Shown piece by piece: positions 2,723 through 61,807 of a DNA stretch of 64,000 nt. The position numbers and the translations under genes were made by a program. Below the pieces are notes generated by a model that saw only the letters and a program-made list of their open reading frames with translations, did no database searches and was not told the origin of the DNA. The DNA lies in contig JABMRF010000018.1 in assembly GCA_013202715.1 (NCBI GenBank), positions 14,641 to 78,640 of the forward strand. The letters are read 5' to 3'. Origin of the DNA: Candidatus Kuenenbacteria bacterium. GTDB lineage: Bacteria; Patescibacteriota; Patescibacteriia; UBA11705; JABHMO01. Every line of letters begins with the position of its first letter. Positions within the stretch are counted from its first letter, which is position 1.

Positions 2723-3243
2723 ACGCTTGGTATGCACTCGCAATTGCCTTTGGGGCGACGGGACTTTTTTTTCTCGTTTTTTATCTTTTTAGCAGCAAAC
2801 CCAATCCCATGCGAAACACAATGAAATGGATCACTATCGGCCTTCTTACGATGGCTTTCGGAATGGCGATTGCTGGAGTCCTTTGCAATGCAGAGACAAA
2901 GCAAATCGAAAATGAGCAGCAAAATGTGCCCGTAGAAAATGAGTGCCTGAAGTTTATTGGTGATCTGCGAATCAATGGCACGCAAGGAAAAATTGTTCTT
3001 GAAAATGAGAGTGATGAAGCTCTAGGCAAAATTGAAGTTGCCCGCGATGCCGGTTTTGTTGGCGGAACTGCGCCAACCGGTCTGAATTCCTCAAAACATC
3101 TGGTCATGTTTGGCTACATGCCGGGCAAAAACCTGTATATTGTGTCAGCGCCCTATTCAGAAGAGAGCAGGGTTTACACGATCTGGCACAACGGACAGCA
3201 TCGGGCAATGGACTTAAGTAAATGTCCGCGTGACCACCTCTGA
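2719..3243 (+). CDS. membrane-anchored paralog-array protein
   Basis: RBS ggagg before the ATG at 2719. N-terminal TM helices. The C-terminal ..NECLKFIGDLRINGTQ.. domain is paralogous to 3357..3806. Confidence 0.5.
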   Translation: MNAWYALAIAFGATGLFFLVFYLFSSKPNPMRNTMKWITIGLLTMAFGMAIAGVLCNAETKQIENEQQNVPVENECLKFIGDLRINGTQGKIVLENESDEALGKIEVARDAGFVGGTAPTGLNSSKHLVMFGYMPGKNLYIVSAPYSEESRVYTIWHNGQHRAMDLSKCPRDHL

Positions 3244-3290: not shown

Positions 3291-3356
3291 TAATTTTAGC
3301 CAATAACTTCAGCCAGCCCTTGACAAATCAATTCTACGATGATACTATAAGGAGTA

Positions 3357-3806
3357 ATGTTTTTGGTTATTTGGCTGGCGTTTAGAAAAAAGGTTCTGAA
3401 CGGTGTTGCAAAACAACTTTTCATCATCATGGGGATATTGAGTCTCGCGATGTGCCTGTATGGATTCCTTCAATACAAAGGAATCATCTCCGATGGAAAC
3501 GCACAGGAAAGCGCATTGGAACAGGAAGATTGCATCAAGCAACTGGGGGACCTAAAGATTGTGGCTCACCACAACTCGGTTGAATTCATCAATAACGCTG
3601 AAACCGGAAGTGTTGAAGTGATGGCCTGGGCTGACGACTTCAAACTCCAGTCAACAATTCCACCGCAAAAAGGCGTTCGAGTTGTGCGCTGGTTTCAGGA
3701 TGACGAAAAAGTCCCCAAGGTTTACGTGAATCATAACCTTGTAAAACACGAATATGATTTCAATGGTTGCACCATGGTGTTTGGAACGACATTTGGAGCA
3801 CAGTAA
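3357..3806 (+). CDS. membrane-anchored paralog-array protein
   Basis: Contains EDCIKQLGDLKIVAHH, paralogous to 2719..3243. Own promoter at 3320-3352. Confidence 0.5.
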   Translation: MFLVIWLAFRKKVLNGVAKQLFIIMGILSLAMCLYGFLQYKGIISDGNAQESALEQEDCIKQLGDLKIVAHHNSVEFINNAETGSVEVMAWADDFKLQSTIPPQKGVRVVRWFQDDEKVPKVYVNHNLVKHEYDFNGCTMVFGTTFGAQ

Positions 3807-4250: not shown

Positions 4251-4301
4251 TTATTACCCTGCCCTTTAGGGCGGGCTACTGGCTGAAGGGATAGGCACTC
4301 C

Positions 4302-5252
4302 CTAAAGGGAGGGGTAATTTTGGACCTCGAGCCATGCATCGCGAACTTCCAGTCGCGCATCCTGATCGTGAAATTTGAGAATTTTATTACTGATCACCAC
4401 ATCTGTATTTTCTTGCCAGGCGAGGTCAAAAAGGTGACGAGGCATTTCTTTCAATTGGATCTTTTCCAGCCAAGTATTTATAAACCTCGGCGCTAATAAT
4501 ATTTCAAATATTTTTTTTATGATGTTTTTTTGAGTCATAAACCAACGGCGATTAGTTTTCACATGAATACAATTGGGCAAATACTCTTTTATCCAACTAT
4601 TGGCTTTATAAAACTTATCAATTAGGTCCTGTTTTCCGTAAACGGGCATAAACTGATTTAACCAGTAAATAAAATGGATATCATTTTCATAAGCCAGACT
4701 TTGCATATCTAAATTTTCCTCGGTAATGTAAAAACTCAGACAGATCTTGTCTTTTTGTGTCCTCTCATTTGGCCGTTTATTAAATAACATCATTAATCCG
4801 ACCGCCAACAAACGCACAGTCCAGATTGTATTTTTTGAAGTGATTATCGCTAAATCAATATCAGAATCATCAGGCGCATTTAAGTAGCCTAAATTATTGC
4901 AAATAAAAATCGCTTTTACAAATGGGATTTTCGAAATCAACTTTACATACGGCCGCGCCTTTTTCATCTTTTCCTGGGCGATTAAATATCTTTTCTTTCT
5001 AGTTTTAATGTTTTCTTGATTTCTTGATTTTTTGTTTTCTTCCGAACCTCTCAAACAAAAAAAACCCTCGCGTAAAACGAGAATTTTTTCATCAACCATC
5101 TTCTTCAGTTCCTTGTTAACCTGAGCCAAGGTAAACCTCTGCTCCGGTCGCCAAAGATATTTGTATATTTCAAAAGAAGTTAAAGGATATTCAAAAATAT
5201 CAAAATAAACAATTGTCCCCCTGATGGATTTTTGAATATCTGACACATGCAT
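4302..5252 (-). CDS. hypothetical protein, possibly a Pol-beta-type nucleotidyltransferase fold
   Basis: 316 aa. Contains NNLGYLNAPDDSDIDLAII, which resembles the hG[GS]..D.D nucleotidyltransferase motif. No further homology is recognisable. Confidence 0.3.
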   Translation of the reverse strand: MHVSDIQKSIRGTIVYFDIFEYPLTSFEIYKYLWRPEQRFTLAQVNKELKKMVDEKILVLREGFFCLRGSEENKKSRNQENIKTRKKRYLIAQEKMKKARPYVKLISKIPFVKAIFICNNLGYLNAPDDSDIDLAIITSKNTIWTVRLLAVGLMMLFNKRPNERTQKDKICLSFYITEENLDMQSLAYENDIHFIYWLNQFMPVYGKQDLIDKFYKANSWIKEYLPNCIHVKTNRRWFMTQKNIIKKIFEILLAPRFINTWLEKIQLKEMPRHLFDLAWQENTDVVISNKILKFHDQDARLEVRDAWLEVQNYPSL

Positions 5253-8670: not shown

Positions 8671-9204
8671 ATGAATCAACATTACGAGTTGACCTACATT
8701 GTGTCAATCAAATACATTGAAGATGATCTGCAAAAGGTCATCAAGTCTGTTAATGAAGTAATTGCAAAAGCAAACGGTGAGATTACAAAAGAAACTGACC
8801 TTGGGAAACAGCGACTTGCTTATCCAATCGACCATGCTCATCAGGGAACTTATATTTCTCTTGAGTTTGATATGGAACAGGAAAAACTGCAAGAAACAAA
8901 TACTCTATTGAGATTAATGCCGGAACTACTACGACATTTGATTATTAAAAAGAAAGTTCAAACAGAAGCTGAAATCAAAAAGCAAGAAGATATTCAGGAA
9001 AAAATTAGAAAAGGAAAACAAGAAGAGCTAAAAAAACTTGAAAATGAAACTGAAGTCGGAATAAAAGCAACTGAACCTATCAAAAAGTCAGCTGACGAAA
9101 CCAAGCCAGTTGTAACCAAGAAAGAAAAACCGGCAAAAGAAAAGGTTACCTTGGAGGACTTGGACAAAAAGTTAGATGAAATTTTATCAGACGACATACT
9201 TTAA
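8671..9204 (+). CDS. rpsF: 30S ribosomal protein S6 with a K/E-rich C-terminal extension
   Basis: The ..ELTYIV...........V..........G.I...........LAYPI.....G.Y.. pattern of bS6 is present. Conserved rpsF-ssb-rpsR gene order. Confidence 0.85.
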   Translation: MNQHYELTYIVSIKYIEDDLQKVIKSVNEVIAKANGEITKETDLGKQRLAYPIDHAHQGTYISLEFDMEQEKLQETNTLLRLMPELLRHLIIKKKVQTEAEIKKQEDIQEKIRKGKQEELKKLENETEVGIKATEPIKKSADETKPVVTKKEKPAKEKVTLEDLDKKLDEILSDDIL

Positions 9205-9316
9205 AAATTAAAATGAAAAAGTAAAAACCACATACTTTAAATAGTAAATTCAAAATATTTTTATTTAATAATTTTGACTGTGGTTTTGCATTTTACATTT
9301 TACATTTAAAAACAAT

Positions 9317-15817: not shown

Positions 15818-15865
15818 AATATTTATTTCAGAAACCTAAGCATGGAAATGCTCCTGAAAATTAGT

Positions 15866-15950
15866 TTTTATGTAAAATGTAAAAGTTAAAAGTATTATTG
15901 GGCCCTATTACTATTAACTTTTACTTTTTACCTTTTACCTATTTTATTCT
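15866..15950. repeat. family D palindromic word repeat (gtaaaag / cttttac)
   Basis: Left arm tgtaaaatgtaaaagttaaaagta, right arm tattaacttttactttttaccttttacc. Confidence 0.6.
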
Positions 15951-20070: not shown

Positions 20071-20097
20071 ATCTGTTATAATAGAGGAAGTTGATAG

Positions 20098-20168
20098 TTA
20101 AAATGTCAAATGTAAAAGTATAAAAAATTCAGGATAAGTTACTTTTACCTTTTACCTTTTATTTATTA
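20098..20168. repeat. family D palindromic word repeat
   Basis: Left arm aaaatgtcaaatgtaaaagtat, right arm ttacttttaccttttacctttt. Confidence 0.55.
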
Positions 20169-20179
20169 ACTAAATTTTT

Positions 20180-23919: not shown

Positions 23920-23972
23920 TTGACCACCAGAGGAAGGCGACACGTCGACGTGTCGCCTTCCTCTGGTGCTAT
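23920..23972 (+). terminator. perfect 20-bp hairpin terminator
   Basis: Sequence ccagaggaaggcgacacgtcgacgtgtcgccttcctctgg. Confidence 0.6.
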
Positions 23973-33342: not shown

Positions 33343-33397
33343 CCTGCCCTGGTTCGAGGTTTTATGTATTCTCATAAAACACCTCACCATGACAGGT
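33343..33397 (-). repeat. hairpin family G, copy 2, in the GIY-YIG 5' UTR
   Basis: Reverse complement is cctgtcatggtgaggtgttttatgagaatacataaaacctcgaaccaggg. It lies downstream of promoter TTGACA(33299)-17-TATACT. Confidence 0.65.
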
Positions 33398-33417
33398 AGG
33401 AAGACACACAAACGCCT

Positions 33418-33741
33418 ATGAAACACCAATATTTTGTTTACATCCTCGAATGCAGTGACGAAAGTTATTACACGGGCGTGACCAATAATTATAAAAAGCG
33501 TAAAAAAGAACACAATGACGGAAAATATCAAACCTGCTATACATATTCAAGGCGCCCATTAAAGCTGGTTTATGTGGAGGAACATAAATATATCAACGAC
33601 GCAATCGCCCGCGAAAAACAAATCAAGAAATGGTCGCGAAAAAAGAAAATTGCGTTAATTAACGATAATCCGACTAACTTGATATTCCTTTCTAAACGAA
33701 AAACAACGCAGGAAAAGATTAAAAACAAGAACAGGGATTAA
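33418..33741 (+). CDS. GIY-YIG nuclease family protein (UPF0213-type, about 100 aa)
   Basis: N-terminus YFVYILECSDESYYTGVTNNYKKRKKEHN matches the GIY-YIG motif. C-terminus is ..AIAREKQIKKWSRKKKIALI. Confidence 0.8.
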   Translation: MKHQYFVYILECSDESYYTGVTNNYKKRKKEHNDGKYQTCYTYSRRPLKLVYVEEHKYINDAIAREKQIKKWSRKKKIALINDNPTNLIFLSKRKTTQEKIKNKNRD

Positions 33742-33744
33742 TCC

Positions 33745-33806
33745 CACCTGCCCTGGTTCGAGGGTTTTTGCGTATTCTCGCAAAAACCTCCTCATCATGA
33801 CAGGTT
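33745..33806 (-). repeat. hairpin family G, copy 3, directly after the GIY-YIG stop
   Basis: Reverse complement is cctgtcatgatgaggaggtttttgcgagaatacgcaaaaaccctcgaaccaggg. It is a direct repeat of copy 2. Confidence 0.65.
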
Positions 33807-33828
33807 AGTCGGGAAACCCAAAGATCCA

Positions 33829-33886
33829 TCTGTCATGCTGAGGTGCTTTTCGACCATAGGGAGAAAAGCCTCGAAGCATGACAAGA
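33829..33886 (+). repeat. hairpin family G, copy 4 (inverted, different loop)
   Basis: Sequence tctgtcatgctgaggtgcttttcgaccatagggagaaaagcctcgaagcatgacaag. Confidence 0.6.
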
Positions 33887-34655: not shown

Positions 34656-34995
34656 TTACCCCAATTTCCCACTTTCACCCCCCATTTTTACGATATGGGG
34701 GTTTTTGCATACACTAGTGTGGACAAATAGACGAAAAACAGGCACTTTTCAACACGTTATCCACACTTTGATAAAAATTAAGAATAAATGATTAAAAATG
34801 AAGGATCTACCAAAATCGGAAGTAATTATATAATCAAAAAATACTAACCCACCATGTCAGCAAAAAGTATTTTTACTGCTATGAAAGATTAGTATTCAAT
34901 ATATAAGCCGAATGAGTTACTCGCCTACTGATCTCCATTCAACTAAGAACGCTGGCTGTGCCAGCCGTAGCTCTGACAAAGTACAGAGCGAAGGC

Positions 34996-35070
34996 TGGTG
35001 CCCCCGGCAGGAATCGAACCTACATCTAGACGTTAGGAGTGTCTTGTTCTATCCGTTGAACTACGGGAGC
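34996..35070 (-). tRNA. tRNA-Arg (anticodon CCU)
   Basis: Cloverleaf folded by hand: acceptor GCTCCCG/CGGGGGC, anticodon loop CTCCTAA, T-loop TTCGATT. CCA is encoded. Confidence 0.8.
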
Positions 35071-35480: not shown

Positions 35481-35554
35481 TTAATAAAATAGTTAAATGG
35501 CTTGCCATGAAGTTATGCGAATTCGAACAAAGTGAGAAATGAGCATATACTTCA

Positions 35555-35629
35555 TGGTACCCCCGGTAGGAGTCGAACCTACGTATCCGGCTTAGAAGGC
35601 CGGTGTTCTATCCGTTGAACTACAGGGGC
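35555..35629 (-). tRNA. tRNA-Arg (anticodon UCU)
   Basis: Cloverleaf: acceptor GCCCCTG/CGGGGGT, anticodon stem CCGGC/GCCGG with loop CTTCTAA, T-loop TTCGACT. CCA is encoded. Confidence 0.8.
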
Positions 35630-56700: not shown

Positions 56701-56841
56701 TCATAAAGGTTGAGCGTTGTGAAAGCTTGCGTAAAGCAGGGGAGAAACTTGCACCAAAGCAAGGACCCCCAGTCTTTCTTGGCACTATAAAGTGCTACAA
56801 CGATTAACCGCCCCCAGGCCGTCGCGACGGCCTGGGGTTTT
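56701..56841 (+). ncRNA. candidate small ncRNA, about 140 nt, possibly SRP-like (unconfirmed)
   Basis: Promoter TTGACA(56666)-17-TATACT(56689). Stable terminator ccccaggccgtcgcgacggcctgggg plus T-run. No ORF. The ends pair (ggttgagcgttgt / acaacgattaacc) to give one long hairpin. Confidence 0.4.
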
Positions 56842-56845
56842 ACTT

Positions 56846-57109
56846 TTAAAATATTAAAAATGCAATGTCAGTCAACGCTTTTATTTTATGATAAGTCTTT
56901 GCCGGAATATTTATTTCTGCTGGAGACTCAACTGTCCGAGTTGAATCTTTCAAAGTTACTTCTGCTTTTCCCGTTATCAAATAAATAACTTCCTCTACAT
57001 TTTCAGAGTTATCACCGGAAACAGTATCCTTGTTTCGATAATATATTTTAAAATCATCCGTTGTGTAGCATTTACCTTTTTGATTTTCCTTGAATAATTC
57101 TATCGTCAT
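56846..57109 (-). CDS. small cupin-like beta-barrel protein, hypothetical
   Basis: 87 aa with a beta-rich composition. The assignment is weak. Confidence 0.3.
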   Translation of the reverse strand: MTIELFKENQKGKCYTTDDFKIYYRNKDTVSGDNSENVEEVIYLITGKAEVTLKDSTRTVESPAEINIPAKTYHKIKALTDIAFLIF

Positions 57110-57160
57110 ATTTTTTACCTTTTTTAACTGTTCAGTTAACTTTATGAACTTTATAACTTT

Positions 57161-58537
57161 CTACTTAACATACGAAAGAGGATTCTTTTTCACACCGCCA
57201 ACAATAACCTCAAAGTGAATGTGAGGGCCCGTTGACCAGCCTGTAGAGCCCATGGCGGCAATTGTTTGTCCTTTGGCAACCTTTTCCCCTTTGCTAACAT
57301 AAAGCTTGCTGGCGTGACCATAAAGAGTTTTTACGCCATTGCCATGATTGATAATAACATTGTATCCATAGCCATTGCTCCAGCCGGATCGCTCAACCGT
57401 ACCTGCTTCAGCAGCATAAAGAGGAGTACCGGATGGGCCAGCAATATCAAGTCCGCGATGACGCCAACTATAATATTGAGAAATTCTTCTCACACTTGTC
57501 GGCCAAAGCATTCCTGACCCTGATGAAATTTTCGAAGGCGGGACAAACAACTTTGAAATCGGAGAAACAGCAGGAACCTGACTTGAAGTATAAGTGGAAT
57601 TACTGACATATGGCGAAACTTTCTTTCCGCCCGGGACCACCAAGTTCTGATTGATCTGAATATCATTAACATCAAATAAATTATTGTAACTAATTATTTT
57701 GTCCTGTTCTACTCCATATTTTTTGGCAATCGCGCCAATATTCTCACCGCGTTTAACTTTATGCGTTACACCTGTTACGGGAAGGATTTCCAGCTTATCT
57801 CCAGCTCGAATTAAAGTATTAATGCCCAGGCCATTTTGCCATAGAATTGTTTCTACGCTAACGCCAAACCTATTAGCAATTGCCGAAACGTTTTCACCGG
57901 ACTGCACAACATAAATTGTAACATCCTGTCTTTCACCGGTATCAAATATAGGAACCTCTGTAATATCAATAGCCTGAATAATATTTGGTTTAACTACGGC
58001 AGCTCCGCCCTCAGTTACCGTTGAAAGTTCAGTGATTAATTGCTCTCCAGCGCCCGGTTGTTGCGAAGAAATTGTTTTTTGACTTTCAACCGATCCGGTT
58101 TTATCCAGGTAACTTAATATTTCTCCAGAAGAAGATAAAACTTGTGTTTCCTCTGTTAGCTCCTCGACCTCTTCTTTTGAAATTACCGAATAGATAACCG
58201 CTTTCTCTCCATAACTATCCTCGCGTAATTCCTTTGCGCTGATACTGTTCATTGTCACGGCCAAACCAATTATCACTATTAAAATGTGAACCAAGTACGC
58301 TTTATTTAAAACATAAAACACCTTACTTTTTGCAGGTGCATAAACATTCAATGCTTTGTGTTTTATAAAATAAAAAAACTTATAAATCGGAAAAATACCA
58401 ATTTTAAAAACCGCTCTTCCAAAGTAATAAGCGCCGGTTCTCAAGAACCCCAATTTCTTTAGCAGGAACTTGCTAAATTTCGCGCCATTTCTAAAAAATG
58501 CGGCTAACGATTTTATTAAAATCTTCTTTATTTGCAT
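57161..58537 (-). CDS. M23-family peptidase with two LysM domains
   Basis: LysM domains YVVQSGENVSAIANRFGVS..IL..N and HKVKRGENIGAIAKKYGV....I...N. M23 motifs HRGLDIAG, G.SNGYGY and HGNGVKT are followed by H.HFEV. Confidence 0.85.
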   Translation of the reverse strand: MQIKKILIKSLAAFFRNGAKFSKFLLKKLGFLRTGAYYFGRAVFKIGIFPIYKFFYFIKHKALNVYAPAKSKVFYVLNKAYLVHILIVIIGLAVTMNSISAKELREDSYGEKAVIYSVISKEEVEELTEETQVLSSSGEILSYLDKTGSVESQKTISSQQPGAGEQLITELSTVTEGGAAVVKPNIIQAIDITEVPIFDTGERQDVTIYVVQSGENVSAIANRFGVSVETILWQNGLGINTLIRAGDKLEILPVTGVTHKVKRGENIGAIAKKYGVEQDKIISYNNLFDVNDIQINQNLVVPGGKKVSPYVSNSTYTSSQVPAVSPISKLFVPPSKISSGSGMLWPTSVRRISQYYSWRHRGLDIAGPSGTPLYAAEAGTVERSGWSNGYGYNVIINHGNGVKTLYGHASKLYVSKGEKVAKGQTIAAMGSTGWSTGPHIHFEVIVGGVKKNPLSYVK

Positions 58538-58700
58538 ATATGTTGCCTTATCAAAATAGCAGAATTAACCCAAAAAGTCAAAGGCTTGGGACAAACGTCA
58601 ATTGTGCGTCACCTCTTGCTTTTTTTATAAAAATAGGGTAGTATACTTATGAAACTAAAAATAAAAACTTGATCTTTCTTGATCTTTTCTAAAAAACCCT

Positions 58701-59213
58701 ATGTCCAACAGACATCTTGCCAGAACAATTGCCCTTCAAACTTTATTTGAATGGGACTTCAAAGGTAAGAAAAAAAAACAGCTCGATGAACTTATCGAAT
58801 ATAATTTTCAGGCTTTTGCGCCGGAATTTAATGACCATTCATTTACAGAGAAAATTGTTCAGGGAGTAATTAAAAATCTAAAAGAGATTGACGGCTTCGT
58901 AGAAAAATATGCGCCAGAGTGGCCAATCGATCAAATAACTATTGTTGATCGTAATATTTTACGAATCGGAATCTACGAACTTATTTTTGACTTAAATATT
59001 CCTTCAAAAGTTGCTATCAACGAAGCAATTGAAACGGCGAAGGCTTTTGGTGGCGAGTCATCAGGGAAATTTGTTAACGGCGTGCTGGGTTCAATTTACA
59101 AGGACATTGGCCCTACTGAAAAAAGCGAGGACAAGGAAATTGAAAAAAAAGAACCCGAAGAGAAAAAAACTGCCAAAGGCTCCGAGCTTAGCCGAGGAGA
59201 GGAAAAGAAATAA
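58701..59213 (+). CDS. nusB: transcription antitermination factor NusB with K/E-rich tail
   Basis: Contains ..R..AR..ALQ.LF..D.............VDR.ILRIG.YEL......P..V.INEAIE.AK.FG....GKFVNGVL. Confidence 0.85.
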
Positions 59214-59292
59214 GCATCTTAAACAAAACAGAGGGCAGTAATTAGCAAATATTAACGCTATTTTCTAATTATTGTTTTCTGTTCTTTGAATT

Positions 59293-59985
59293 ATGAAAAA
59301 AGATTTTTCAAAAATTCAGAAAAGAATTAAAATCAAATTTAAAAATCTGGATTTACTAACCCAGTCAATGGTTCATCGTTCATATTTAAATGAACATCCC
59401 AGTTTTGAATTGGATCACAATGAACGCCTGGAATTTTTGGGTGACGCAGTACTGGAATTGGTTGTCACGGAAAATATTTACCTTAATTATGAAAACCCTG
59501 AAGGAGAGTTAACCAATTGGCGAGCAAGCTTAGTAAATAGTAAAATGCTGGCCAGAGTAGCTGAAGAACTTGAAATTGAAGAATATCTATTCCTGAGCCG
59601 AGGAGAACAAAAAGACACCGGGAAAGCCAGACAATATATTTTGGCAAATGCAATGGAAGCGCTAATTGGCTCAATCTACCTGGACCAGGGATGGGATAAA
59701 TCAAAAAAATTCATTGAGACCTTTATTTTGACAAAACTACCTGATATACTTGAAAACAAATTATATTTAGACCCGAAAAGTACTTTTCAAGAACTTGCCC
59801 AGGAAAAGGCTGGTACCACTCCAAATTACAAAGTTTTGAAAGAATATGGACCTGATCATTCAAAAACTTTTGAAATTGGCGTTTATTTAAAAAGCGAATT
59901 AATTGCAGAAGGAAAAGGGTCCAGTAAACAAGAAGCCCAAGAAGATGCGGCTAGAAATGGATTGGAAAAACAGGGGTGGTCGTAG
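59293..59985 (+). CDS. rnc: ribonuclease III
   Basis: Signature ERLEFLGDAVLELVVTE. dsRBD at the C-terminus. Confidence 0.9.
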   Translation: MKKDFSKIQKRIKIKFKNLDLLTQSMVHRSYLNEHPSFELDHNERLEFLGDAVLELVVTENIYLNYENPEGELTNWRASLVNSKMLARVAEELEIEEYLFLSRGEQKDTGKARQYILANAMEALIGSIYLDQGWDKSKKFIETFILTKLPDILENKLYLDPKSTFQELAQEKAGTTPNYKVLKEYGPDHSKTFEIGVYLKSELIAEGKGSSKQEAQEDAARNGLEKQGWS

Positions 59986-60087
59986 TCAATGAAGAATTAA
60001 TAATTAACAATGGCAGATTTAAGAATGAATACTTATTGTGTTAAGTTCTTAATTATTAATTCTTTATTTCTAATTTTTAATTATCGC

Positions 60088-60164
60088 GGGCCCGTAGCTC
60101 AGTTGGTTAGAGCGCTTGCATGGCATGCAAGAGGTCGCTGGTTCGACCCCAGTCGGGTCCACCA
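60088..60164 (+). tRNA. tRNA-Ala (anticodon GGC)
   Basis: Cloverleaf with the G3:U70 identity pair. Anticodon loop ATGGCAT. CCA is encoded. Confidence 0.8.
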
Positions 60165-60280
60165 TGTACCATTCGTGTACTTCGTTCACTCAGGTACATG
60201 GCAAGCCATATTATTTCAAAACAAGATAATTTAAATTAACTATCAATTATCTTCAGTTAACTTTTATTAACTTTCTTTTT

Positions 60281-60356
60281 GCAGTCGTAGCTTAATGGAT
60301 AAAGCATCTGGCTTCGGACCAGAGGATTGGGGGTTCGAGTCCCTCCGGCTGCACCA
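60281..60356 (+). tRNA. tRNA-Arg (anticodon UCG)
   Basis: Cloverleaf: acceptor GCAGTCG/CGGCTGC, anticodon loop CTTCGGA, T-loop TTCGAGT. CCA is encoded. Confidence 0.75.
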
Positions 60357-60456
60357 TGAAGTACATGCTTATCTGCCTTTGGCAGATGGCGCATGACTTC
60401 ATGGTAAACCATAACAAATTGGTTTACCGTGAAGTCATGAGCATGTACTTCACGGA
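60357..60456 (+). repeat. large branched hairpin element (left flank of GIY-YIG cassette 2)
   Basis: Outer stem tgaagtacatgc/gcatgtacttca is 12 bp. Inner stems are gcatgacttcatggtaaacc/ggtttaccgtgaagtcatgagc and atctgcc/ggcagat. Confidence 0.65.
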
Positions 60457-60494
60457 TCCGTAGATCAAGTGGAGAAACCATAATCAACGTTACC

Positions 60495-60764
60495 ATAAAA
60501 TATATATTCTTTGTTTATATTCTGGAAAGTCAAAAGGATTACAAATTATACACGGGTTTTACTCCCGATGATCCAGATAAACGAACAAAAAAACACAACA
60601 AAGGATTAGTTCCCTCTACGAAAAAAAGGATACCATTCAATCTAGTTTATTTTGAAGCATCTATGAATCAGGATGATGCTCTAAGGAGAGAAAAATATTT
60701 TAAAACTACTGCCGGAAAACGCGCAATAAAGCACATGCTAAGAAAAACACTCAAAAAGAAGTAA
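60495..60764 (+). pseudogene. GIY-YIG nuclease family ORF with no canonical start codon (ATA where ATG is expected)
   Basis: Frame translates to IKYIFFVYILESQKDYKLYTGFTPDDPDKRTKKHNKG...LVYFEASMNQDDALRREKYFKTTAGKRAIKHMLRKTLKKK*. GIY-YIG and C-terminal motifs are intact. The first in-frame ATG lies far inside. The ORF track missed it. Confidence 0.6.
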
Positions 60765-60767
60765 CAC

Positions 60768-60860
60768 GGGTTTACCCTGAAGTTAATCCGCTTTAACACG
60801 GGTTTACCCTGAAGTCATAGGAAAAATTTGAAAGAGTTCAAATTTTTCCTATGTACTTCA
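60768..60860 (+). repeat. right-flank repeat of GIY-YIG cassette 2
   Basis: Direct repeat acacgggtttaccctgaagt x2 followed by a perfect 13-bp hairpin ggaaaaatttgaa/ttcaaatttttcc. The ..gggtttaccctgaagtcat...atgtacttca segment matches the left-flank element. Confidence 0.6.
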
Positions 60861-60936
60861 GGGCGCATAGCTCAGCTGGTAGAGCAGTTGGCTCTTAACC
60901 AATTGGTCGGAGGTTCGAGTCCTCCTGTGCCCACCA
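60861..60936 (+). tRNA. tRNA-Lys (anticodon CUU)
   Basis: Cloverleaf: acceptor GGGCGCA/TGTGCCC, anticodon loop CTCTTAA, T-loop TTCGAGT. CCA is encoded. Confidence 0.8.
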
Positions 60937-61084
60937 TTCAACTCGTTTCACTCGCTCATGGTGTTCCACCGTTAGCTTACAAGAAACGAGGCGAATGTCC
61001 TGAGCGACTATAAAGGAGTCGAAGGACAAAAAAGAATTGACGATAGTCGATTTTTTTTGTTTTTAAAATAAACTGTGTTAAAAT

Positions 61085-61180
61085 AACGGTACGGATTACA
61101 GATTGCTACAGATGTACAGATTCATAACTATAACCTTAAATCCGTACATCCGTATTTGATCCGTAATCTGTAAATCTATG
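61085..61180. repeat. family C palindromic word repeat (tacagat/atctgta, atccgta/tacggat)
   Basis: Left arm ggtacggattacagattgctacagatgtacagatt, right arm aaatccgtacatccgtatttgatccgtaatctgtaaatct. Confidence 0.6.
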
Positions 61181-61807
61181 AAACATTACATTGCTATCGC
61201 GGGAAATATCGGCGCAGGAAAAACTGTCATTTCAAAAAAGTTGGCTAAACATTTTGATTGGCAACTATATCAGGAACCATTTCAGGAAAATCCATACTTG
61301 CGTGATTATTATAATGATATGACAAAATGGGCATTTAAATGCGAAATGTTCTTTCTCGGAAGACGCCTGCAAGATCACCTAGAAATACTTGAAAGTGCTA
61401 ATGTCACGATTCAAGACCGCTGTATTTACGAAGGTGCAGAAATTTTTGTTAAAAATCTGTATTTGAACGGCCATTTAGCTGAAACTGACTGGCAAAATTA
61501 CAATAACCTATATCAATCTATTAAAAAAACAATTACTCCACCGGATTTAATCGTCTATGTAAAATCTTCAACTGATCGTTGTCTGAAAAATATAAATAAA
61601 AGAAACCGCAACGTGGAATTTCATATGAGCTCAGACTATATCGCCAACTTGAACAAGCTTTACGAAGAATGGATCAAAAGCTTTGATCTTTGTCCGATTT
61701 TAATTGCAGATGCTGACAATAATGAATTCAAGTATGTCGAAAACGATTTTGTAAATTTAGCAAACCAGATTCAAGATAGTTTGGAAAAACAAATTACCAA
61801 ACAATAG
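61178..61807 (+). CDS. deoxynucleoside kinase (dCK/dGK family)
   Basis: P-loop IAIAGNIGAGKT. Contains the ..F.E.....R..YL.. and DR pattern of the dNK family. Confidence 0.7.
   Translation: MKHYIAIAGNIGAGKTVISKKLAKHFDWQLYQEPFQENPYLRDYYNDMTKWAFKCEMFFLGRRLQDHLEILESANVTIQDRCIYEGAEIFVKNLYLNGHLAETDWQNYNNLYQSIKKTITPPDLIVYVKSSTDRCLKNINKRNRNVEFHMSSDYIANLNKLYEEWIKSFDLCPILIADADNNEFKYVENDFVNLANQIQDSLEKQITKQ

Follow-up and report, generated by a model that had tools for sequence, protein, structure and literature searches.

A resident tRNA-linked GIY-YIG cassette, probably derived from a mobile element, in a Candidatus Kuenenbacteria genome

The GIY-YIG gene between tRNA-Arg and tRNA-Lys

The genes for tRNA-Arg(UCG) and tRNA-Lys(CUU) in a Candidatus Kuenenbacteria genome are separated by a 504 bp spacer, which we analyzed within a stretch of 64,000 nt (the window). 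Both tRNAs are complete as judged by ARAGORN and Rfam (70-72 bits), and the RNase III gene (rnc) is located directly upstream, here as well as in relatives. Promoter and terminator consensus motifs were scanned for from 59900 to 61250, and their counts were no better than those in shuffled sequences. The features of the locus and two related ones elsewhere in the window are as follows.

60281-60356, + strand: tRNA-Arg(UCG) (ARAGORN, anticodon tcg; Rfam, 70 bits; fold)
60354-60411, + strand: left terminal repeat, the clamp hairpin of the tRNA-Arg trailer (fold, inverted-repeat search, comparison with loci L004 and L168)
60420-60455, + strand: internal inverted copy of the repeat, TGGTTTACC G TGAAGTCATG AG CATGTACTTCA CGG (inverted repeats I2 and I4; fold)
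60453-60480, + strand: segment tentatively resembling a decayed 5′ part of a tRNA, CGGATCCGTAGATCAAGTGGAGAAACCA (sequence similarity)
60471-60485, + strand: SD-like GGAGA (60471-60475), followed by in-frame ATA 60480 and ATC 60483 (sequence reading)
60504-60764, + strand: Slx1/UPF0213-type GIY-YIG gene, 86 codons (Pfam, alignment, ortholog, AlphaFold2 model)
60762-60783 and 60794-60815, + strand: tandem duplication with a 32 nt period, 22-mer TAACACGGGTTTACCCTGAAGT (repeat family D2)
60801-60863, + strand: right terminal repeat, the leader hairpin of tRNA-Lys (inverted repeats I3, I5 and I7; fold)
60861-60936, + strand: tRNA-Lys(CUU), directly abutted by the right repeat (ARAGORN, anticodon ctt; Rfam)
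33418-33741, within 33343-33883, + strand: paralogous GIY-YIG gene with an ATG start (Pfam, repeats, fold)
35505-35557, − strand: cassette-free trailer hairpin of tRNA-Arg(UCU), same family (sequence; fold z −4.0)

The earlier note had recognized an overlooked GIY-YIG frame between the two tRNAs, and this is a real gene: the frame is open from 60441 to 60764 on the + strand, ends with TAA at 60762-60764 and matches Pfam PF01541 with an E-value of 8.7e-14 (52 bits, the cut-off being 22.6; the match spans positions 2-74 of the 78 in the profile). This single domain spans nearly the whole protein and is accompanied by no auxiliary domain. The motif residues, i.e. the Tyr of GIY, the Tyr-x-Gly of YIG, the Arg and the catalytic Glu, are all kept; Y13, Y24, G26, R35, H39, E59, R70 and E71 are invariant across 28 aligned sequences, and the protein retains 13/13 invariant and 9/9 near-invariant alignment columns. 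The AlphaFold2 model (pLDDT 92.6; element order E-E-H-H-E-H-H-H) adopts the GIY-YIG beta-beta-alpha-alpha-beta-alpha fold, and Foldseek matched it to 1zg2 (E 7.9e-4) and to Slx1 chains (E 1.6e-3 to 4e-2, rmsd ~2 Å), with I-TevI reached only at E 0.4. The predicted fold is thus nearer to Slx1 than to I-TevI, and phmmer likewise retrieved the UPF0213 proteins 1zg2 (E 2.3e-6) and 1ywl. Judging from the model and these matches, the protein is nearer to the Slx1/UPF0213 type than to the UvrC or homing-endonuclease lineage.

Its closest family is that of the stand-alone prokaryotic Slx1-like proteins (UPF0213/COG2827; 1zg2 BH0048, 1ywl EF2693; the 'non-Eukaryota Slx1' cluster of Dunin-Horkawicz et al., 2006). 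Like these proteins, which have ~85-100 aa, it consists of the catalytic domain only. The described family is regarded as a repair-type gene inherited vertically. A DNA-binding domain of the I-TevI/Seg type was not found, as 86 aa leave no room for it and there is no second Pfam match. The protein matched no family in NCBIfam, in the defence-system collection PADLOC or in PHROG, and no relatives were found on viral contigs. A phage origin of the gene was rejected as far as the viral-contig and PHROG searches reach, and a role as a component of a defence system was rejected as PADLOC gave no match.

Comparison with the ortholog at locus L004 yielded pN 0.17, pS 0.75 and dN/dS 0.05, from which the gene, apart from its start codon, is judged to be under purifying selection. 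Strong purifying selection and a wide phyletic spread are equally expected of a cellular gene. Across the 86 codons there is no frameshift, no internal stop and no lost invariant residue, the start codon excepted. Lineage-specific departures from the family majority number six in the window gene and one in L004, a weak comparison.

The frame 60441-60764 contains no ATG, GTG or TTG upstream of ATG 60663. The lost start had been placed at ATA 60495 by analogy with the paralog; however, alignment with 27 homologs and the ortholog L004 maps the ancestral ATG to ATA 60504-60506, where the window reads ATA TTC TTT GTT TAT ATT CTG and L004 reads ATG TAT TTT GTT TAC ATA TTA. A canonical start (ATG, GTG or TTG) stands at the homologous place in 140 of 143 non-redundant relatives. 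Since the ortholog also has ATG, the ATA is a derived change. ATA occupies the start position of intact ORFs at L122 and L155 too, which makes three such members among 144 loci. An independent metagenome contig (L002) differs from the window at a single position of this interval, 60943, which lies outside the ORF. It carries the same ATA allele, which is therefore not a single-assembly error. When the ORF protein was searched against metagenome contigs, the closest match was 73%, and a protein database search found no near-identical allele.

In E. coli, initiation at ATA reaches 0.02-3% of the AUG level (bioRxiv 10.1101/063800). The in-frame ATA 60480 and ATC 60483 that follow the SD-like GGAGA possibly form a rescue initiation site, which would add 8 residues; this arrangement is not conserved in L004. 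The earlier proposal of either a pseudogene without a start or a non-ATG start was correct in that the canonical start is lost. With everything else intact, we give about even odds to two readings: the gene became a pseudogene very recently, or it is still translated weakly, starting from ATA 60504 or from the ATA/ATC at 60480/60483 behind the SD-like motif.

Structured repeats on both sides of the gene

The left repeat consists of CCA TGAAGT-A-CATGC, a small inner hairpin (60371-60387), GCATG ACTTCA TGG and the box TGGTAAACCA (60402-60411), and its opening three bases are the CCA of tRNA-Arg(UCG) at 60354-60356. The internal inverted copy at 60420-60455 pairs perfectly with both arms of this repeat, resulting in a Y-shaped structure at 60354-60455. 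In agreement with the branched hairpin of ~100 nt previously described as starting from the tRNA-Arg CCA, the fold of the left flank (60351-60458) is a three-way junction with −64.7 kcal/mol (z −12), equalled by none of 200 shuffles.

The right repeat, GGTTTACC C TGAAGT CATAGGAAAAATTTGAA agag TTCAAATTTTTCCTATG TA CTTCA GGG, corresponds in reverse complement to the left one's outer parts, and its final GGG represents positions 1-3 (G1-G3) of tRNA-Lys. The hairpin at 60807-60863 has −37 kcal/mol (z −8.6). The earlier description of this flank held for its two components, a duplication and a hairpin, and required correction in size: the duplicated unit is a 22-mer, not a 20-mer, and the hairpin core comprises 17 perfect base pairs rather than 13. 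The first copy of the duplication is truncated and the second runs into the terminal hairpin; L004 lacks the duplication.

The two terminal inverted repeats are ~50 nt long, each forms a bulged hairpin, and they abut the tRNA-Arg CCA and position +1 of tRNA-Lys, respectively; TGAAGTACAT...ATGACTTCAKGGTAAACC occurs at both ends in inverted orientation. A core common to both flanks had been noted, and it is borne out by four exact copies of GGTTTACCNTGAAGT, all within the interval (eight copies with up to two mismatches against 0.46 expected by chance), and three exact copies of ATGTACTTCA, found solely between tRNA-Arg and tRNA-Lys. No target-site duplication is evident in the window, and the repeats are closed by CCA/TGG or CCC/GGG. 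Rfam searches at the gathering threshold for the window and at E ≤ 0.1 for 14 related loci left the hairpins unmatched, returning only tRNAs and chance matches.

Directly 3′ of a leader-type hairpin, as the real tRNA-Lys is, lies the segment 60453-60480, which matches the 5′ 20-mer of tRNA-Ala at 70% (repeat family D3). Its local alignment with the 5′ part of tRNA-Arg(tcg) (17/22) was reached as high in 7 of 5000 shuffles and in 21 of 8906 window 28-mers. With p ~0.002, the tRNA-like nature of this segment is only suggestive, and our main argument does not lean on it.

Within the 64 kb window, the repeat family is confined to the cassette locus and one diverged hairpin in the trailer of tRNA-Arg(UCU), which reads CCA TGAAGT-A-TATGC ... 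GCATA ACTTCA TGG CAAGCCA. A second gene-bearing copy of the repeat family is absent from the window, which counts against recent mobility in this genome. The tRNA-Arg(UCU) hairpin reflects a general tRNA 3′ trailer design that has no counterpart in Rfam: the CCA end is sequestered in a clamp hairpin, and a YNNRCCA box comes next. All five tRNAs of the window show this design, as do 38 of the 77 CCA-encoding tRNAs in the collected loci, some of them without a nearby GIY-YIG gene. Among 19 aligned trailers, 94% of cells are paired and 9 of 14 pairs have changed on both sides, which was matched in none of 500 shuffles, and the left repeat itself is retained with compensatory changes in L004 and L168. 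The flanks had been regarded as the cassette's own repeat family. They do recur with the gene, but the tRNA-Arg hairpin belongs to the trailer design, so that what looks like a terminal repeat may in part be structure that ordinarily flanks tRNAs.

These covarying trailers at tRNAs devoid of a GIY-YIG gene favor an explanation with nothing mobile in it, namely an ordinary cellular gene, in which a Slx1-like nuclease with a role in tRNA/RNA metabolism or DNA repair is co-transcribed with tRNAs and the hairpins are processing or termination structures. This explanation, which we regard as unlikely, is also favored by the dN/dS of 0.05, by the conservation of all catalytic residues and by the lack of matches to phage and defence families. 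Prokaryotic Slx1-like domains have been reported in fusion with a TrmH-like tRNA methyltransferase, along with the suggestion that they act in RNA metabolism (Dunin-Horkawicz et al., 2006, PMC1564403). Near-perfect complementarity of this length (20-26 bp stems) bordering a transcript segment is also seen in the RNase III stems of rRNA operons, and rnc lies upstream; in the window, the bracketed segment is an insert between tRNAs and not a stable RNA, so that the likeness is an analogy only.

The association of structured repeats with GIY-YIG genes was claimed to be a recurring architecture, and this proved right. The paralog is bracketed by three copies of a different hairpin of ~55-60 nt (33343-33396, 33746-33805 and 33830-33883), and its relatives L170-L172 carry arrays of the same kind of hairpin. 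For the gene at 60504, hairpins also flank its counterpart in L004, and the Y-shaped element and the ORF are found together 3′ of tRNA-Gln in L109 and 3′ of several different tRNAs in Peribacteria. Upstream of the 143 family members, strongly structured 60 nt windows are ~3-fold enriched within 200 nt.

Occupied and empty sites, and linkage to tRNA genes across the family

The earlier note had suggested looking for an empty site in relatives, and the relatives compared are not uniform, in contrast to the uniform presence of an intact gene without repeats that would mark an ordinary conserved gene. In L004 (73% aa identity), the order is rnc, tRNA-Ala, tRNA-Arg, GIY-YIG with an ATG start, and tRNA-Lys; the right hairpin is kept, with CCC/GGG changed to CCA/TGG and an A-U pair to G-U. 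Three further relatives have 74-77% rnc identity (L165, L168 and L164). In L165 the site is empty and the spacer is a plain 60 nt. The 181 nt spacer of L168 consists of two 40 nt inverted repeats (35/40 match) without the gene, of which neither tblastn nor blastn-short detected a remnant. L164 has another GIY-YIG gene 3′ of tRNA-Arg. One site is thus represented by occupied (window and L004), empty (L165) and repeats-only (L168) alleles. The synteny and conservation shared with L004 mean that the cassette has been inherited vertically in this case; on this comparison it is a resident copy and not a recent insertion private to the window genome.

A decaying pseudogene in a spacer that accumulates unrelated palindromes of the REP or MITE type, or structures of tRNA flanks, would account for part of these data. 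The canonical start is gone, ATA is a poor initiation codon in E. coli, the six departures against one in L004 point in the same direction, the spacer contains lineage-specific duplications (the 32 nt repeat and the internal inverted copy), and the repeats persist without a gene in L168. Nevertheless, we consider such a dead relic quite improbable, as no frameshift, stop or invariant-residue loss has accumulated over 86 codons, the identical allele is present in two independent samples, L122 and L155 likewise combine ATA with intact ORFs, and the flanking repeats are kept with compensatory changes in the ortholog and recur with the gene at other tRNAs.

At least 568 relatives were confirmed in the genome collection (568 of 600 among the pattern matches listed), and the 143 non-redundant loci were examined for their neighbors. 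The density of tRNAs is 0.87/kb within 300 nt of the gene and 0.011/kb beyond 1500 nt, a ~77-fold difference. All 71 nearby tRNAs are co-oriented with the GIY-YIG gene, which suggests co-transcription and agrees with a cellular gene, and they represent at least 25 anticodons. Linkage to tRNAs, which the earlier note had not seen, is the dominant organising feature of the family. The tRNA partner switches inside clades of the protein tree, several loci have two family copies within 6 kb, and repeat arrays are present at some (L008, L051 and L170-L172). In at least 12 loci the ORF is flanked by an exact partial tRNA duplicate of 11-33 nt, with the complete tRNA on the other side; the 5′ part is duplicated at least as often as the 3′ part, and in one clade the displaced 5′ copy has a conserved GC-rich hairpin in the D-arm. 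The linkage is absent from clades of Bacteroidota and Planctomycetota. The patchy presence at a single tRNA pair among close relatives (L165 and L168), the variety and switching of tRNA partners, the exact partial duplications of the neighboring tRNA, the paired copies within 6 kb and the clades without tRNA linkage all argue against an ordinary cellular gene.

Several known systems share some of these properties. A complete tRNA on one side and an exact partial copy on the other is also the arrangement left by tRNA-targeting integrative elements, from which the cassettes differ in that the insert has only ~300-450 bp and encodes no integrase, as well as in the frequent 5′ duplicates and the D-arm hairpin of one clade. 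REP/BIME with RAYT, as well as MITEs, are similar in having a short nuclease gene between palindromic repeats, gene-less copies (here L168 and the tRNA-Arg(UCU) trailer) and arrays. However, RAYT is a HUH/Y1 transposase of the IS200/IS605 type and not a GIY-YIG protein, and the window repeats are tied to tRNA ends, are low-copy in the window and lack a visible target-site duplication.

SegB of phage T4 is a site-specific, free-standing GIY-YIG homing endonuclease encoded in the tRNA gene cluster (PMC2330249). It resembles the window gene in lying between co-oriented tRNA genes and in being variably present between related genomes. SegB is much larger than 86 aa and has a DNA-binding region. 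By comparison, the window gene is chromosomal in bacteria of the candidate phyla radiation (CPR), encodes 86 aa between palindromic inverted repeats, and has no viral relatives in our searches. The lack of a DNA-binding domain, unlike in known GIY-YIG homing endonucleases, counts against a mobile cassette.

In a further reading, a tRNA gene is interrupted by a group I intron or similar self-splicing element, and the ORF is its homing endonuclease. Such introns are frequent in tRNAs of Patescibacteria, some with homing endonucleases (PMC13011429), and tRNA-like fragments adjoin the ORF. We consider this reading extremely improbable. The endonucleases reported in those introns are of the HNH, PD-(D/E)XK and LAGLIDADG types and not GIY-YIG (PMC13011429), and Rfam intron families were matched neither in the window at the gathering threshold nor in 14 related loci at E ≤ 0.1. 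Because the flanking tRNAs are intact and no ribozyme was matched in these Rfam searches, the intron reading is effectively refuted.

A minimal cassette that may insert at tRNA genes

We favor the interpretation, with a probability of roughly 0.58, that the spacer is a mobile-element-derived, tRNA-linked GIY-YIG cassette that is resident in this genome. The cassette would comprise the 86-codon nuclease gene co-oriented with the tRNAs, the bracketing inverted repeats of ~50 nt and the internal partial copies of the repeat, possibly together with the decayed tRNA 5′ fragment; the terminal repeats would take in the CCA of tRNA-Arg on one side and the opening bases of tRNA-Lys on the other. In CPR bacteria the cassette family appears to adjoin tRNAs of many specificities, often between a complete tRNA and a partial duplicate, and this siting is typical of elements that restore the tRNA genes at which, or into which, they insert. 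The gene would be transcribed within the tRNA operon. At the RNA level, the long perfect stems could be cut, e.g. by RNase III, to release the mRNA from the flanking tRNAs; at the DNA level, they could offer the structure-specific nuclease a branched or cruciform substrate. In the Kuenenbacteria lineage, the initiation codon would have mutated from ATG to ATA.

To the extent that sequence comparison can tell, similar cassettes are located beside many different tRNA genes across CPR bacteria, and they have no description in the literature searched. On small GIY-YIG genes associated with tRNAs, hairpins or REP sequences, and on YhbQ, UPF0213 and COG2827, this literature offered nothing relevant other than the superfamily survey of 2006 and the article on T4 SegB, and tRNA linkage, terminal hairpin repeats and partial tRNA duplications of UPF0213/Slx1-like genes were unreported there. 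We tentatively propose, as a generalization that we hold somewhat less probable than its opposite, that CPR bacteria harbor an undescribed class of minimal mobile cassettes, each made of a gene for a ~85 aa Slx1-like nuclease and palindromic repeats that are maybe its branched-DNA substrate. Insertion would take place at tRNA genes or within them, and a partial duplication would restore the tRNA. The cassettes would ride on tRNA transcription, and their repeats would pair across the insert, which would leave the tRNAs open to processing. The window copy would then be a resident one, turned down or off by the change from ATG to ATA.

The ATA-starting members also matter for annotation, because gene callers restricted to ATG, GTG and TTG overlook intact members of this family. 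The conserved 3′ trailer structure of CPR tRNAs may bear on tRNA maturation in these reduced organisms. Stand-alone bacterial Slx1-like GIY-YIG proteins are very widespread; the tight, co-oriented linkage to tRNAs with variable partners, the partial tRNA duplications and the hairpins lead to the hypothesis that their genes form selfish, tRNA-targeted cassettes around a structure-specific nuclease.

The GIY-YIG gene between tRNA-Arg and tRNA-Lys

The 504-bp spacer between tRNA-Arg(UCG) and tRNA-Lys(CUU) contains a single long open frame, 60441-60764, in which no ATG, GTG or TTG occurs ahead of 60663. The three co-oriented tRNA genes of the locus were identified by ARAGORN and Rfam.

Genes surrounding the cassette in the window
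59293-59985: RNase III gene (rnc), upstream of the three tRNA genes
60088-60164: tRNA-Ala(GGC), co-oriented with the Arg and Lys tRNAs
60281-60356: tRNA-Arg(UCG), co-oriented with the Ala and Lys tRNAs
60861-60936: tRNA-Lys(CUU), co-oriented with the Ala and Arg tRNAs
61178-61807: deoxynucleoside kinase gene, downstream of the three tRNA genes

The translated frame comprises a complete GIY-YIG domain (Pfam PF01541, E 8.7e-14, profile positions 2-74 of 78). A sequence search of the PDB matched only 1zg2 and 1ywl, two UPF0213 structural-genomics proteins. The AlphaFold2 model (pLDDT 92.6) matched 1zg2 best and also the nuclease domains of eukaryotic Slx1 (rmsd about 2 A over ~74 residues), while I-TevI scored far below both. 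Therefore, the protein belongs to the stand-alone prokaryotic Slx1-like cluster (Dunin-Horkawicz et al., 2006, PMC1564403). NCBIfam, PHROG and PADLOC gave no match for the window protein, and no relatives of it were found on viral contigs. The RNase III protein of the window has an exact counterpart (100% identity) in the NCBI records of Candidatus Kuenenbacteria.

In an alignment with 27 homologs, nearly all N-termini read M-[YF]-x-V-Y-[IV]-L, whereas the window reads I-F-F-V-Y-I-L, with ATA at 60504-60506 where the homologs have ATG. The nearest relative (73% at the amino acid level), L004, is the orthologous locus; its genes are arranged as rnc, tRNA-Ala(GGC), tRNA-Arg(UCG), GIY-YIG gene and tRNA-Lys(CUU), and its GIY-YIG gene has 84 codons starting with ATG. 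Among the 143 non-redundant family loci listed, the start codon at or near this position is ATG in 123, GTG in 16 and TTG in one, and thus the ATA of the window is a derived ATG-to-ATA transition. The loss is not an artefact of one assembly, because an independent metagenome contig (L002) reproduces 56812-61571 except for one difference at 60943. The L004 record, CAYSUN010000042.1, bears the label of an uncultured Gammaproteobacteria MAG. In its synteny of NusB, rnc and tRNAs and in its RNase III (74% identity) it agrees with the Kuenenbacteria-like window, and the contig is probably mis-binned or mis-classified.

The window gene has no stop or frameshift and keeps 13/13 invariant and 9/9 near-invariant alignment columns. 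Compared with L004, pN is 0.17 and pS 0.75 (saturated), giving a dN/dS of about 0.05; this is a conserved, selected gene for an Slx1-like mini-nuclease. Relaxed constraint in the window is weakly hinted at by six lineage-specific departures from the family majority versus one in L004, and by AUA initiation in E. coli reaching only 0.02-3% of the AUG level (bioRxiv 10.1101/063800). Three observations point the other way: two further loci, L122 and L155, lack a canonical start and have ATA in its place with intact ORFs; in-frame ATA 60480 and ATC 60483 follow a GGAGA (60471-60475) with the spacing of a Shine-Dalgarno site, in a stretch not conserved in L004; and the ATA allele is identical in two independent samples. 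The odds are about even between a young pseudogene and weak translation of the gene. The ATA codons of L122 (near 1501) and L155 (near 1501) stand where clade mates have ATG, and the recurrence may reflect a tolerated weak start or G-to-A mutation bias. The only family locus with a nonsense lesion is L042, in which ATG is directly followed by TAG near 3001.

Terminal hairpins and CCA-clamp trailers

The left flank (60354-60455) adopts a Y-shaped fold (-64.7 kcal/mol, z = -12). Its outer stem pairs CCATGAAGTACATGCT with AGCATGTACTTCACGG, the first bases being the CCA of tRNA-Arg; the inner hairpins are a small one at 60371-60387 and one of 20 bp, GCATGACTTCATGGTAAACCA paired to TGGTTTACCGTGAAGTCATG. 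The right flank carries a tandem duplication with a 32-nt period (identical 22-mers at 60762 and 60794). After it comes a bulged hairpin of 26 bp (60807-60863; -37 kcal/mol, z = -8.6), and the GGG at the end of this hairpin is positions 1-3 of tRNA-Lys. The cassette ends are mutual inverted repeats, left TGAAGTACAT...ATGACTTCATGGTAAACC and right, as the reverse complement, TGAAGTACAT...ATGACTTCAGGGTAAACC. The terminal repeats are inverted and self-palindromic, and merge with the tRNA ends. A box, GGTTTACC/GGTAAACC, is present at all element ends. The 10-mer ACACGGGTTT occurs at 60550-60559, inside the ORF where it encodes the conserved YTGF motif, and at 60764-60773 and 60796-60805, in both 22-mer copies just past the stop codon; this recurrence may have arisen by chance or through a small internal duplication.

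Both terminal hairpins are kept in L004, with compensatory changes.

Changes in the terminal hairpins, window to L004
TGAAGT/ACTTCA to TAAAGT/ACTTTA: compensatory
CATGC/GCATG to TATGC/GCATA: compensatory
CCC/GGG to CCA/TGG: compensatory
one A-U pair to G-U

Two features are window-specific, the internal inverted copy and the 32-nt duplication. Where the window has the inverted copy, the trailer hairpin and the ATG of L004 are separated by about five tandem GTTAAACCA/GGTAAACCA units (~13-nt period; 2911-2985). Directly past the internal hairpin, a 28-nt stretch resembles a tRNA 5′ part (17/22 to tRNA-Arg); an equal score arose in 7/5000 shuffles and 21/8906 window 28-mers, so that its likeness to a tRNA 5′ remnant is suggestive only.

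The same hairpin family occurs, with no GIY-YIG gene, in the trailer of tRNA-Arg(UCU) at 35505-35557 (-). At 5/5 window tRNAs, the trailer forms a hairpin closed by pairing of the CCA with a TGG further on, and a YNNRCCA box (TGGCAAGCCA, TGGTAAACCA, TGGCACAGCCA or TGGTGTTCCA) comes next.

CCA-clamp trailers in the window
60161-60212, + strand
60354-60411, + strand
60934-60975, + strand
35505-35557, - strand
34950-34998, - strand

Of the 77 distinct CCA-encoding tRNAs in the collected loci, 38 have the clamp hairpin and 29 of these 38 also the box; some lie far from any GIY-YIG gene. Such trailers are seen in L004, L073, L085, L164, L166-L169 and others, often with TTCG in the loop, and over all of them the box has the wider form YN(1-4)RCCA. 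We tested covariation in 19 GAAGT-type trailers aligned by their arms: 94% of cells were paired, 9/14 pairs changed on both sides, and one position, a bulged A, was invariant. The score of 0.452 exceeded that of shuffles (0.120; 0/500 reached it), and slid controls were all far lower. Because the design recurs without GIY-YIG genes and covaries, the left terminal repeat is also a member of a conserved CPR tRNA-trailer structure, for which Rfam had no family in the window or the related loci. Its possible roles include processing, CCA-end protection or termination.

Three copies of a different hairpin (33343-33883) flank the paralog at 33418, the other GIY-YIG gene of the window, and hairpin arrays of this kind also surround its relatives L170-L172. 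The array hairpins of this subfamily, of the CTGTCAYGCTGAGG...CCTCGAAGCRTGACAG type, occur in several unrelated genomes (L170 230-1010; L171 830-1370; L172 770-1650), and in L171 and L172 the ORF 3′ end runs into a repeat copy. A window hairpin at 4253-4318, ATTACCCTGCCCTTTAGGGCGGGC / GCACTCCCTAAAGGGAGGGGTAAT, shares its CCCTGCCC start with the paralog-flanking hairpins. The window also contains a perfect 44-nt palindrome with no spacer at 23925-23968 (CACCAGAGGAAGGCGACACGTC and GACGTGTCGCCTTCCTCTGGTG) and long AT-rich inverted repeats of GTAAAAGT/TTTTAC units at 9200-9311, 15858-15945 and 20089-20171.

Site occupancy and tRNA linkage across the family

Relatives were found via RNase III homologs of 74-77% identity. 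They do not all carry the same gene without repeats, the pattern that the earlier note had set against its reading of a hairpin-flanked, start-less gene; instead, the site is in four states.

The tRNA-Arg(UCG)/tRNA-Lys(CUU) site in relatives
L165: both tRNAs, plain 60-nt AT-rich spacer; empty site
L168: 181-nt spacer with trailer hairpin, ~100 nt, and leader hairpin preceded by GGGTTTACC; repeat-only
L164: different GIY-YIG gene directly after tRNA-Arg(UCG)
L167, L169: unrelated gene between the two tRNAs

The spacer ends of L168 are 40-nt inverted repeats matching at 35/40 positions, loops included, and its ~100-nt middle has no similarity to the GIY-YIG gene. Occupied, repeat-only and empty sites thus exist among relatives. 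The cassette is also not a private recent insertion. In L167, but not in L169, tRNA-Arg(UCG) is followed at 3332-3415 by ~78 inserted nt, with a second copy of the final ~18 tRNA nt as their boundary. L164 carries at 3318-3400 a pseudo-copy of the 5′ half of tRNA-Arg, in which the anticodon loop holds an extra 23 nt; the real gene lies ~90 nt downstream.

The 143 non-redundant loci, among the matches listed, come from scans of metagenomes and of a genome set with one member for each species. In these, tRNA density is 0.87/kb within 300 nt of the gene versus 0.011/kb beyond 1500 nt. A tRNA lies within 300 nt at 58 loci, with at least 25 anticodons represented; all 71 such tRNAs share the strand of the gene, which has 54 of them upstream and 17 downstream. 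Essentially every linked locus belongs to the CPR (Peribacteria, ABY1-type groups and other Patescibacteria), and the Bacteroidota and Planctomycetota clades among the loci listed show no linkage. With tRNAs excluded, strong structure (z < -4) was seen in 8.5% of the 60-nt windows that lie in the 200 nt ahead of ORFs, versus 2.7% distally and 0.4% within ORFs.

In a neighbour-joining tree of the proteins, one clade unites the cassettes immediately upstream of a tRNA (partners Lys, Phe, Thr, Met, Val and Asn), Trp and Asp partners are interleaved in a second, and a Peribacteria clade follows Glu, Arg, Tyr, Cys and Gly tRNAs with one common hairpin design. The window and L004 cluster with clades having an upstream tRNA and then two hairpins. 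Parts of tRNAs are also duplicated. An exact copy of the downstream tRNA 5′ part precedes the ORF at at least nine loci with the ORF upstream of the tRNA (inexact copies were seen by eye at three more), and an exact copy of the tRNA 3′ end follows the ORF at three loci with an upstream tRNA. L109 repeats the window architecture at tRNA-Gln (CCA, clamp hairpin, TTAACC box, inverted hairpin, ORF), ending in an 18-nt copy of the tRNA-Gln 3′ end.

One clade has the ORF 1-25 nt upstream of a complete tRNA and an exact copy of the tRNA 5′ part (to position ~31) ahead of it (L015, L028, L032, L038, L064, L066, L073, L076, L079, L153, L159; e.g. L076 2923-3312). A conserved GC-rich hairpin, CCCGCCCGCAACGCC...GGCG.GCGGGCGGG, breaks this copy in the D-arm, at a point that varies (positions 8-21). 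In L032 the module occurs twice, once without an ORF. At about 3235-3440 of L028, the two arms of the hairpin split the D-loop of tRNA-Val(CAC), and a second, complete tRNA-Val(CAC) lies between them, so that one tRNA gene is nested in another.

Two possible readings: a mobile cassette or a cellular nuclease

The linkage of the family to tRNA genes is strong and oriented, with changing partners and partial tRNA duplications. We infer that the GIY-YIG family is a mobile cassette targeting tRNA genes, or descended from one. The cassette gene would be transcribed together with the tRNAs, and the long stems may serve as sites of RNA processing, as DNA on which a structure-specific nuclease acts, or in both ways. 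The chief alternative, a cellular nuclease whose role is tied to tRNAs and which is co-transcribed with them, is encouraged by the reported fusions of Slx1-like domains to tRNA methyltransferases (PMC1564403). It accounts for the general trailer hairpins as well as for selection and orientation, but poorly for the patchy occupancy, partner switching and tRNA duplications.

The protein family itself is already known, as are GIY-YIG genes in tRNA clusters, such as T4 SegB (PMC2330249). The literature searched held no account of tRNA-linked stand-alone Slx1-like cassettes in CPR bacteria, of their hairpin terminal repeats and associated tRNA fragment duplications, or of the CCA-clamp trailer. Modest as a single locus is alone, the family pattern is specific, statistically strong and experimentally testable.
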